A stretch of DNA of 64,000 nt from Trueperaceae bacterium (GTDB lineage: Bacteria > Deinococcota > Deinococci > Deinococcales > Trueperaceae), in assembly GCA_965215565.1 (NCBI GenBank), contig CBDCDZ010000004.1, positions 2,016,001 to 2,080,000 on the forward strand, in the 5' to 3' direction. This document shows positions 2,985-4,518 of this stretch, one piece after another. Both the position numbers and the translations under genes were made by a program. The first letter of the stretch is position 1, and each line of letters opens with the position of its first letter. A model generated the notes under the pieces. It had not been told where the DNA came from, did not search any database, and saw only the letters and a list, made by a program, of their open reading frames with translations.

Positions 2985-3202
2985 TTATACGGATTCCGAT
3001 TGATTACTGCATAAACTCCTTCGGAGTTGATTCCGTAATCATCGGAATCCGTAGCTCTTTATTCTCGCAAAGGAGCCTTCAGCCGGGGCTGATAAGCTTA
3101 ACGACGACGCGCGTAGCTTCAAAGATGATACCTCTGGCTGAAGACTCTTCCGCTCGGGTTAAACACGAAATAAAGTTTCGTGTTTAACCGGAAACGGTAT
3201 TA
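2985..3202. repeat. SRE-like modular hairpin element, copy 1 (ends TATACGGATTCCG ... CGGAAACGGTATTA)
   Basis: Nested inverted repeats. Shares sequence with 59211-59339 and 27581-27615. Confidence 0.8.
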
Positions 3203-3685
3203 CACGCCGGGTAACTCAACCGCACTCGGGAAGTCCGGGAAGAGGTTGGAGCTGTCTATTTCGCCGCGGTGGTTGAAGAAGGTGACGCGCCCTTCCAAGC
3301 TGCACGTCCACACCTCCTTCGCACCTTTCGCAAGGTAGAGATGGCGCTTTAGCGCCATCTCCGCGTCTGAGTTGGAGGGCGAAACGATTTCAACACAGAG
3401 TTCCGGTGCAATACCGAAGGGCGTTTCCAGGCCATTTTGAGAAAAGAAGTCGGCTGAAATCCACACAACATCAGCCACCTTGACTCCCTTCGAGGTTCTC
3501 AAGGAACATTCTGAAATGACAACGCCTCCACTTTTCAACCGAGTAAGAAGAAATGCAATCGCTGTTTGTATAGCACCGTGCAGGTTAGAAGCAGGGCTCA
3601 TAACGACGTTGCCCCATTCGTTAAGCTCAATCTTGAAGGGAAGATTTTGCAGCGTCTCATCTTTGATAACCTCTGACCATTCCAT
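3200..3685 (-). CDS. Uma2 family (PD-(D/E)XK) endonuclease
   Basis: Motifs MSPAS..H, VKVADVVW, APELCVEIVSPSN and YLAKGAKEVW. Confidence 0.9.
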   Translation of the reverse strand: MEWSEVIKDETLQNLPFKIELNEWGNVVMSPASNLHGAIQTAIAFLLTRLKSGGVVISECSLRTSKGVKVADVVWISADFFSQNGLETPFGIAPELCVEIVSPSNSDAEMALKRHLYLAKGAKEVWTCSLEGRVTFFNHRGEIDSSNLFPDFPSAVELPGV

Positions 3686-3773
3686 ACGTCTATTCTACTC
3701 GAGTTCTCCCCACCTACACCTCTTTAGTAGCGAAACACACACCCCTCTTGAAAAAATGTTATATACTTTTCTT

Positions 3774-3944
3774 ACCACAGAAAGGAGGTGGTCCGAATTT
3801 TACAAAATGACATGACCAGTGGAGGTACCCGCCGAGGGTAACTGACCATGTCCCGGACTGAGGGACTTTCGCTAAAGAGTTGTTTATCCTCAGTACCAGG
3901 CGGGCACCGACAGCCTCGAGATCGTCTCGAGGCTGTTTCCTTTT
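3774..3944 (+). ncRNA. Candidate small structured RNA / micro-ORF transcript with a 16S-complementary 5' end
   Basis: TATACT at 3762-3767 and AGAAAGGAGGTGGTCC at 3779-3794. Internal stems, then a terminator hairpin at 3909-3937 followed by T's. The flanking genes are on the opposite strand. Confidence 0.55.
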
Positions 3945-4062
3945 GCCCTTGTCGTTTGGCGGTGTACCACGTTTTGCGTGTGGCGTTGCGCTAATATTTA
4001 TGAGAGAGGTAGCTCGGTCCCCGCATGGACGCAAAACGGGACACCTCAGACCTCTTGTACTT

Positions 4063-4518
4063 TTAGAGCGTTAAATTGTACGTATAGAAAGACGTGTCTT
4101 TCTTCCACCCGAGCGCTTCATAAAGTTTTTGCGCTTGCTCATTCGTGACCTCCGTCGCAAGCATCAGCCGCGCCGCGCCCGTTTCTTTTCCGAAACTCGC
4201 CGCACGCTCCATGAGCACTTTTGCTACCCCTTTACGCCTTGCCTGCTCCGTTACGAAGAGGTCATTCAAAATCCAAATCTGCGCCATCAAGACGGACGAA
4301 AACGAGGGGTAGAGCTGCGCAAAGCCGGCGGGTTTACCGTCTGAAAACGCGATGAAAACGACCGAATCCCCTTGCGAGAGCCGCTCGTACAAAAACGCCT
4401 TTGCCCCCGACGTGTCGGAGGCTTGGCGGTAGAACTGCCTGTAACCGTCGAAAAGTTGCGTGAGTTCATCTAAGTGCTGGAGTCCAGCTTGGACGACCTT
4501 TAAGTCTGAATCAGCCAC
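4063..4518 (-). CDS. GNAT family N-acetyltransferase
   Basis: Acetyl-CoA motif WILNDLFV..ARRKGVA and N..AQKLYEALG. Confidence 0.9.
   Translation of the reverse strand: MADSDLKVVQAGLQHLDELTQLFDGYRQFYRQASDTSGAKAFLYERLSQGDSVVFIAFSDGKPAGFAQLYPSFSSVLMAQIWILNDLFVTEQARRKGVAKVLMERAASFGKETGAARLMLATEVTNEQAQKLYEALGWKKDTSFYTYNLTL

Follow-up and report, generated by a model that had tools for sequence, protein, structure and literature searches.

The RNA gene and its surroundings

The window, which is the whole 64-kb stretch of DNA analysed here, comes from a Trueperaceae genome of 4.49 Mb that is 99.99% complete. In it, two protein genes on the minus strand flank a short unit on the plus strand, with the following features (SD, Shine-Dalgarno sequence).

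3200-3685, minus strand: Uma2-family putative endonuclease gene, neighbour of the RNA gene
3762..3767, plus strand: predicted -10 promoter box TATACT (TAnnnT spacing kept in homologues)
3774..3944, plus strand: predicted transcript of ~171 nt from A3774 (start placed by -10 spacing and onset of conservation)
3775..3778, plus strand: 5' strand of P0, CCAC, pairing with GTGG 3819-3822
3779..3794, plus strand: extended SD (SD1) AGAAAGGAGGTGGTCC, 16 nt against the organism's own 16S 3' end (from the 16S gene), one G-U pair
3789..3818, plus strand: P1, TGGTC 3789-3793 with GACCA 3814-3818, its A/U-rich loop containing the start codon (97.2% of cells paired)
3797..3841, plus strand: conserved 14-codon frame, ATT start 3797-3799, TAA stop 3839-3841, literal translation ILQNDMTSGGTRRG
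3821..3826, plus strand: second SD (SD2) GGAGGT, inside the frame at the P0/P2 junction, ending 13 nt upstream of the stop
3824..3908, plus strand: long rod built on P2 (3824-3833 with 3899-3908), the stop codon being buried in its further pairs (pairing in the alignment)
3844..3853, plus strand: internal anti-SD GACCATGTCC just after the stop, able to pair back on SD1 or SD2 in an alternative closed fold
3856-3863/3888-3894, plus strand: stem in the variable apical part of the rod
3909..3944, plus strand: predicted intrinsic terminator, 13-pair stem 3909-3937 and T-rich tail
4063-4518, minus strand: GNAT acetyltransferase gene, neighbour of the RNA gene

The motifs, both stems and the terminator that were quoted in a preliminary description of this DNA are all where it had placed them, and the two neighbours lie, as it said, on the other strand. 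Its principal claim, that of a stand-alone structured RNA gene of ~170 nt with extreme complementarity to the 16S rRNA tail, also holds: the fold of the region beats 200 of 200 shuffles (z -4.4) and homologues, the check that it had itself proposed, are present in 65 of 69 genomes of the Trueperaceae family. A scan of the region for sigma-70 promoters returned no sites; TAnnnT is found exactly 6 nt upstream of a conserved ACCAC in 73 of the 76 distinct homologues. Homologue lengths range from 142 to 185 nt (median 166.5, n = 76 distinct copies), and each unit is closed by a terminator, the hairpin and T tail standing at the same place with a different sequence. Rfam at its gathering cut-offs and ARAGORN find no match in the whole window. 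A higher read depth over the RNA in two runs of undefined kind (one sample, contigs) was set aside as evidence, because the summed copies of related organisms explain it equally well.

Both same-genus genomes (L009, L010) lack the Uma2 gene at this position, so that it appears to have been inserted recently. Immediately beyond the terminator, at ~3960-3977, is a short dispersed repeat, GGTGTACCACGTTTT, of which the genome has nine exact copies and which is present upstream of infC too; the stretch 3929-3990 has six weak matches elsewhere in the genome. The repeat is possibly REP-like or the remnant of a mobile element. Directly upstream of another homologue (L011, genome G005) lie two ORFs that resemble, by eye, an IS5-type transposase pair.

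The extended Shine-Dalgarno sequence

The organism's own 16S gene ends in GGATCACCTCCTTTCT (the mature 3' end being taken from the gene sequence), and SD1 pairs with it along its whole length with one G-U pair, as had been proposed from the typical bacterial 16S terminus. With R at the wobble position the 16-mer occurs twice in 4.49 Mb, at the RNA locus and on the opposite strand of the 16S gene. Paired with the last 15 nt of the 16S gene end it forms a duplex of -25.6 kcal/mol, which ranks second among the 9,238 GGAGG sites of the genome (median -11.8), behind the rRNA gene itself. Against the last 11 nt only, three other genomic sites score slightly better; the distinction of SD1 thus resides in its 3' extension. 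In many copies from the sister families f2 and f5 the extended SD takes the perfect form, GATCC, in place of the single G-U pair of the window copy. In one genus of the Trueperaceae (g35; L279-L281) both elements are weakened, SD1 lacking its upstream purines and SD2 being GAAGGT; these copies keep the frame, the ATT start and the stop (L279 by translation, L280 and L281 by eye). An extended SD of this quality can also serve an ordinary gene: at locus L217 a 16-nt perfect extended SD is the extreme ribosome-binding site of a 69-codon ORF, which we take to resemble the gas vesicle protein GvpA.

A conserved frame that never starts with AUG

According to the preliminary description SD1 is followed only by micro-ORFs (ATG-ACA-TGA at 3807-3815 and a 9-codon ATG frame at 3812-3841) and has no normal coding sequence to serve. 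Both ORFs exist, but a longer frame of 14 codons was overlooked, which starts at ATT 8 nt downstream of GGAGG (3784-3788) and of which the 9-codon ORF is the tail. The search for homologues, by a pattern that required neither frame, start nor stop, yielded 95 loci, which reduce to 76 distinct ones when compared along their first 110 nt. Each of these has an in-frame start 7-9 nt after GGAGG (ATT in 42, ATA in 19, ATC in 15, ATG in none) and a stop six codons beyond the second GGA (TAA in 57, TAG in 17, TGA in 2), for a frame of 12-15 codons. SD1 does, then, have a reading frame to serve, with an AUU at SD distance in the window copy. There is no in-frame stop among 1,082 codons, compared with 87 and 70 in the other two frames, the latter counts being partly due to conserved letters. 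The distance between SD1 and SD2 takes all values modulo 3 (61, 11 and 4 copies), and start to stop remains in frame throughout. In five of the 76, TAG immediately precedes the ATH start, which excludes a start further upstream. Copies that the pattern missed and that were found with a model keep frame, start and stop as well. For all 90 distinct Deinococcota copies the tally is 81 ATT, ATA or ATC and 8 CTG, at 7-9 nt, 1 TTG at 10 nt, and no ATG. The sister families f2 and f5 (L268-L278, L282) mostly have CTG, at 8 nt, and some of the f2 copies are very compact, at about 130-145 nt.

Two other candidates for the start were rejected. The ATG at 3812 is present in only 24 of the 76 homologues and is 23 nt from GGAGG; a GTG inside SD1 is out of frame in 15 of the 76 and is interrupted by an in-frame TAG in five.

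Initiation factor IF3 discriminates against AUU and AUA starts, and its gene, infC, is autoregulated. The organism's own infC (C4 ~3,558,950, minus strand; L287, locus 2001-1999) has ATA as its start, 8 nt behind GGAGG. It agrees with the RNA in spacing and in type of start, so that starts of this kind are in use in the organism where control by IF3 is to be expected. We regard the 14-codon frame as very probably translated.

A second Shine-Dalgarno sequence before the stop

SD2 sits within the frame, its end 10 nt from the last sense codon in the window copy, and its duplex with the 16S tail is worth -10.7 kcal/mol. Metagenomes, scanned for GAGGT at 18-45 nt behind an extended SD, contain at least 119 such loci, 111 of them distinct among the matches listed; the pattern itself demands an SD2-type GAGGT, and the copies are kin rather than independent samples. 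Among these 111, a stop lies 10 nt (53 loci) or 11 nt (52 loci) after GAGG, and in all 105 it closes an 11-19 codon frame running from SD1. The six others listed are two CC2171 members over the Rfam cut-off, in which a later GAGG stands 11 nt ahead of the stop, two CC2171-like loci with a G run 8-10 nt before the stop, and two ordinary genes of 69 and 73 codons. The starts of the 105 were read as GTG (52), TTG (30), ATG (18), CTG (4) and ATA (1) by a script that favoured NTG; with ATG in 18 of these listed distant relatives, the class as a whole does not require a non-canonical start.

The distance from SD2 to the stop is accordingly 10, 11 or 13 nt in three sub-families, which read SD2 in two frames and differ in their C-terminal peptides. 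By way of background, GAGGT stands at one of these three spacings in 1.9% of 2,524 long ORFs of the organism's own genome. SD2 is weakened to GAAGGT in three of 26 model-found copies. Its letters also build parts of helices P0 and P2, and, the homologues not being independent, the fixed spacing between SD2 and the stop may be inherited structure.

Predicted open and closed folds

The helices P0, P1 and P2 with its extension were examined on 57 of the 76 copies, where 92.9% of cells are paired, as against 32-56% when slid. P0 is 100% paired and invariant in these 57 aligned homologues; from one sub-family to another its third pair varies between A-U, G-U and G-C, and the 11-nt sub-family fits it less well. 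P1 changes on one side only. P2 and its extension are 89.5% and 89.8% paired and include three pairs with changes on both sides, and the apical part of the rod varies in length and sequence. In all there are 14 cells with both-side changes, a number reached by none of 500 shuffles, but they fall in 3 of 24 pairs, which 170 of 500 shuffles reach; covariation inside the Trueperaceae is thin. In the modelled fold P0 and P1 together would loop out the purine core of SD1.

For the window copy this consensus fold has a free energy of -68.1 kcal/mol, 2.6 above the minimum of -70.7. Other treatments are less favourable to it: RNAalifold on a MAFFT alignment gives two local hairpins, without covariation, instead of P0/P1/P2, and single-sequence ensembles assign median probabilities of 0.03, 0.06 and 0.12 to P0, P1 and P2. 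These ensembles favour the three helices so weakly partly because the anti-SD beyond the stop competes for the same partners. The pairing of the anti-SD with SD1 is stronger than in shuffled sequence in 74 of the 76 homologues (-14.7 kcal/mol in the window copy), and in the minimum folds SD1 and SD2 are each paired to it in 32 of the 76. Given that competition the RNA would likely take two alternative folds, one of them with SD1 open.

Distribution

The gene is single-copy in the 65 family genomes that have it, and the four genomes in which it is missed are 86-94% complete. Of the 65 copies, 49 were found by the pattern, 2 by BLAST only and 14 by a sequence-only model (one of these is cut by a contig end). 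BLAST finds a homologue in 20 of 24 family genomes and nothing convincing in 16 genomes from other families. In 185,579 genomes scanned there were 74 loci: those with a taxon name all carry Trueperaceae, Truepera or other Deinococcota labels, and the remainder are labelled 'uncultured bacterium'. With a second pattern the RNA was found in 10 of 103 genomes of sister family f2 and in all five of f5; the same pattern found no copy in 61 genomes of f4 or 12 of f3. Within f2 it matched 10 of the 11 genomes that do not belong to the largest genus and none of the 92 that do; to judge by its size, this genus is probably Deinococcus. That no copy was found in f2's largest genus or in the f4 and f3 genomes searched implies that the RNA is dispensable in close kin. 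Its neighbouring genes differ between genomes, which marks it as an independent unit, and it is in the two SDs and the frame that its sequence is chiefly conserved.

Some matches were discarded: those of the first pattern in f2 and f4 are at chance level (a reversed control pattern matched equally often), and model matches with E > 0.01 were left out as homologues, three of them having been inspected and found to lack the architecture. A distant blastn search of a plasmid collection with 81 nt gave three short exact matches, one of which is a Nonomuraea gerenzanensis member of the Ms_IGR-5 family.

Relatives in other phyla

The preliminary description could not assign the RNA to a known kind. 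Such a kind has in fact been described, in the form of rreB and rreR, small mRNAs of Alphaproteobacteria with a function that has stayed unexplained (Hahn 2016, RNA Biol, PMC5711450; here and below from the accessible portion of the article), and the Rfam scan, which gave nothing at the gathering cut-offs, did give sub-threshold matches to two families, Ms_IGR-5 and CC2171. In common with rreB and rreR, the Trueperaceae RNA is a stand-alone unit of ~165 nt with promoter and terminator (here as sequence signals only), has 16-17 nt of complementarity to the 16S 3' end (the rre genes are defined by a perfect match of at least 16 nt; here 16 nt pair, one of the pairs being G-U) and has a short clade-conserved ORF directly behind the extended SD (12-15 codons, 76 of 76). 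It shares with rreB a 14-codon frame behind a weak start and an SD that lies partly in a hairpin. The rre start, on the other hand, is GTG at 7 nt (ATG in Azospirillum), its first base being the last of the complementary stretch, whereas the start here is ATT, ATA or ATC (CTG in the sister families), at 8 nt and outside the complementary stretch; and the hosts are Deinococcota instead of Alphaproteobacteria. The accessible main text of PMC5711450 mentions neither a second SD nor an internal anti-SD, and the terms Actinobacteria, Deinococcus, IF3, 'internal' and CC2171 do not occur in it.

The match to Ms_IGR-5 (RF02471, an actinobacterial sRNA) is the only sub-threshold one to that family in the genome. 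It scores 28.8 bits against a cut-off of 45 (E 8.3e-5) and covers 3774-3942 on positions 1-184 of the 184 of the model. The architecture agrees from end to end: a 5' extended SD, a loop-closing hairpin, a rod closed by a GGU/ACC helix, and a terminator. True members of the family carry a frame of 12-15 codons in which GAGG precedes the stop by 11 nt; they read SD2 as GAG-GTG at a spacing of 11 nt and start at TTG, ATG or GTG, in contrast to the GGA-GGT, 13 nt and ATH of the Trueperaceae RNA. When 20 picked loci were scanned with Rfam, six were above the Ms_IGR-5 cut-off (L187, L148, L213, L222, L256, L159), one of them from the actinomycete Nonomuraea gerenzanensis. IGR-5 is expressed in M. 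smegmatis as ncMSMEG15794c (PMC10454040), has an NAD cap there at a start on A and counts as uncharacterised (bioRxiv 2021.12.14.472595), and Ms_IGR-5 is expressed in S. lividans (PMC8079986), according to the accessible portions of these papers. CC2171 (RF01867, a Caulobacter sRNA) matches at 18.7 bits against a cut-off of 75. It resembles the Trueperaceae RNA in its 5' extended SD, its consensus SD-GAUCCA-GUG being an rre-type binding site, and in two members a frame of 25 codons has GAGG at 11 nt from its stop; it differs in its 3' fold and GTG start. CC2171 is expressed in M. extorquens (bioRxiv 2022.01.24.477521, accessible portion).

Two better understood systems offer themselves for comparison. 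In the same genome, the infC mRNA has an SD and a non-canonical AUH start at 8 nt, like the RNA, but it makes a protein and regulates itself, while the RNA has no downstream gene to control. The STAB-SD 5' stabilisers (cry3A) have a strong 5' SD that would hold a 30S subunit and, with no start codon, protect the long coding mRNA behind it; the Trueperaceae RNA has a conserved start, a terminator follows, and both neighbours are on the opposite strand, so that the RNA is not of that type.

The literature searched consists of freely available papers with few subscription titles. Within it, no paper links the rre, Ms_IGR-5 and CC2171 families or describes the AUH start or the spacing of the second SD, and no follow-up on rreB after the original paper was found. 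Mycobacterial ribosome-profiling supplements (PMC4633059, 12 of 13 files) have no row for the IGR-5 frame. The leads of SEP7 of Sinorhizobium and of scr4389 as a Streptomyces counterpart yielded, respectively, nothing relevant and no confirmation, and the accessible portions of PMC11701678, PMC10117765, PMC8388888 and PMC8058203 hold nothing bearing on the RNA. We are confident that the RNA is a mini-mRNA of the rre/Ms_IGR-5 kind. With a start other than the GTG of the rre genes, and scores below both Rfam cut-offs, it is filed as a variant and not as a member. To judge by sequence comparison, its non-AUG start and the spacing between SD2 and the stop would be newly described features of a class that is itself known and unexplained.

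A proposed mechanism and its competitors

We propose, tentatively and at somewhat under an even chance of the whole being right, that the 171-nt mini-mRNA binds free 30S subunits through SD1 and releases them only upon successful initiation at AUU, a rare event for which IF3 would act as the gate. The looped-out purines of SD1 would seed pairing with the 16S tail, as has been proposed for rreB; the strong duplex and the poor start codon would then hold a 30S initiation complex, in which the 16S 3' end may also be shielded from RNase R. (An SD oligonucleotide protects 30S subunits from RNase R (PMC10901742), and the genome has one RNB-family gene, with an 824-codon frame.) Once there is too little IF3 for the free 30S subunits, the situation known from the autoregulation of infC, the ribosome would initiate and unwind the rod. 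With the stop codon in the A site, SD2 would lie 10 nt upstream of the P-site codon, where the ribosome could re-anchor and pause. This passage of the ribosome would refold the RNA and set off its degradation; for rreB it is the start codon that promotes decay, the half-life increasing from 10 to 37 min when that codon is made a stop (PMC5711450). The act of translation, and not the peptide, is likely the working part.

Another division of labour within the same RNA is possible, but we consider it unlikely: the SD front end would serve as a stabiliser or licence, somewhat as in STAB-SD, and the 3' rod or a CCUCC anti-SD would act in trans on mRNAs or bind a protein once translation opens it. 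Half of the RNA does lie 3' of the stop, the pairing of the rod is conserved, CCTCC occurs at the internal anti-SD in 48 of the 76 homologues, and Rfam lists the relatives as sRNAs. What this leaves unaccounted for is that conservation centres on the two SDs and the frame and that the apical region is so variable in length and sequence. The window copy, moreover, has no CCTCC and still pairs its own SD1, which points to a role in cis.

Slightly less probable again is a functional peptide of 12-16 residues, made at a very low and tightly controlled level. The frame is fully conserved, but the N-terminal half of the peptide varies freely in sequence and length and the C-terminal half is fixed largely at the nucleotide level; its T-S-G-G-(A/T)-R-R-G is kept despite some silent changes (CGT/CGC, GGG/GGC), yet most silent positions are fixed too (GGT in 90 of 90 copies, GGG in 85 of 90), as an RNA constraint predicts. 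Sister sub-families read SD2 in another frame and have unrelated C-termini. The precedent of the rre genes cuts both ways: the RreB and RreR peptides are conserved within their own clades, but synthetic RreB is unstructured and its overproduction has no effect on growth (PMC5711450).

The preliminary description had wavered between a micropeptide mRNA with extreme ribosome affinity and an anti-SD sponge, and with the frame kept in all 76 homologues the former was nearer the truth. A start-less or practically untranslated sponge, storing 30S in bulk and shifting translation toward leaderless mRNAs, would need no strictly kept frame, start and stop, and we rate it as distinctly improbable. The facts that lend it some colour are that SD1 is the strongest match to the 16S tail (last 15 nt) in the genome outside the rRNA gene, that SD pairing protects 30S from RNase R (PMC10901742) and that rreB co-sediments with 30S, is mostly 30S-bound and binds even without its start codon (PMC5711450). 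The same paper attributes the weak translation of rreB to its extended SD and GTG, finds rreB at a level far below that of ribosomes, and reports that 20-fold overproduction leaves growth unchanged, which its authors take as evidence against simple ribosome sequestration. That a sponge works in bulk to favour leaderless mRNAs is unlikely.

The decayed 5' end of a deleted gene (an outcome that the preliminary description had itself allowed for), a chance match or a CsrA-titrating RNA can be dismissed, since the adjoining Uma2 gene missing from two same-genus genomes and the GGA motifs of the RNA weigh little against a single copy, set among varying neighbours, in 65 of 69 family genomes, a terminator of its own, a fixed stop, and a 99.99% complete genome with no csrA (no PF02599 match, PF02599 being matched in three of 14 controls).

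What the RNA may mean

Beyond the proposed IF3-gated binding and release of 30S at a single locus there is a wider reading, more speculative, which we think will probably not hold in full: that rre, CC2171, Ms_IGR-5 and the Deinococcota RNA would form one cross-phylum class of ribosome-handling RNAs, with docking sites for the initiating and the terminating ribosome. The Deinococcota version, its start having become strictly non-canonical, would then be an IF3-gated gauge and parking place for 30S, protecting the 16S tail against RNase R and signalling the stringency of initiation by refolding or decay. The rre mini-mRNAs have been without a known job since 2016, Ms_IGR-5 and CC2171 are catalogued as non-coding, and in the Trueperaceae gene callers and Rfam both miss the gene. 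Two features that are fixed and can be mutated make its function testable. One is the start, for which none of the 90 Deinococcota copies uses AUG; the other is the placement of SD2 within reach of pairing with a terminating ribosome, which is common to sub-families whose frames and peptides differ. Should the mechanism be true, a widespread bacterial RNA would handle the 3' tail of the 30S subunit at both ends of the translation cycle.
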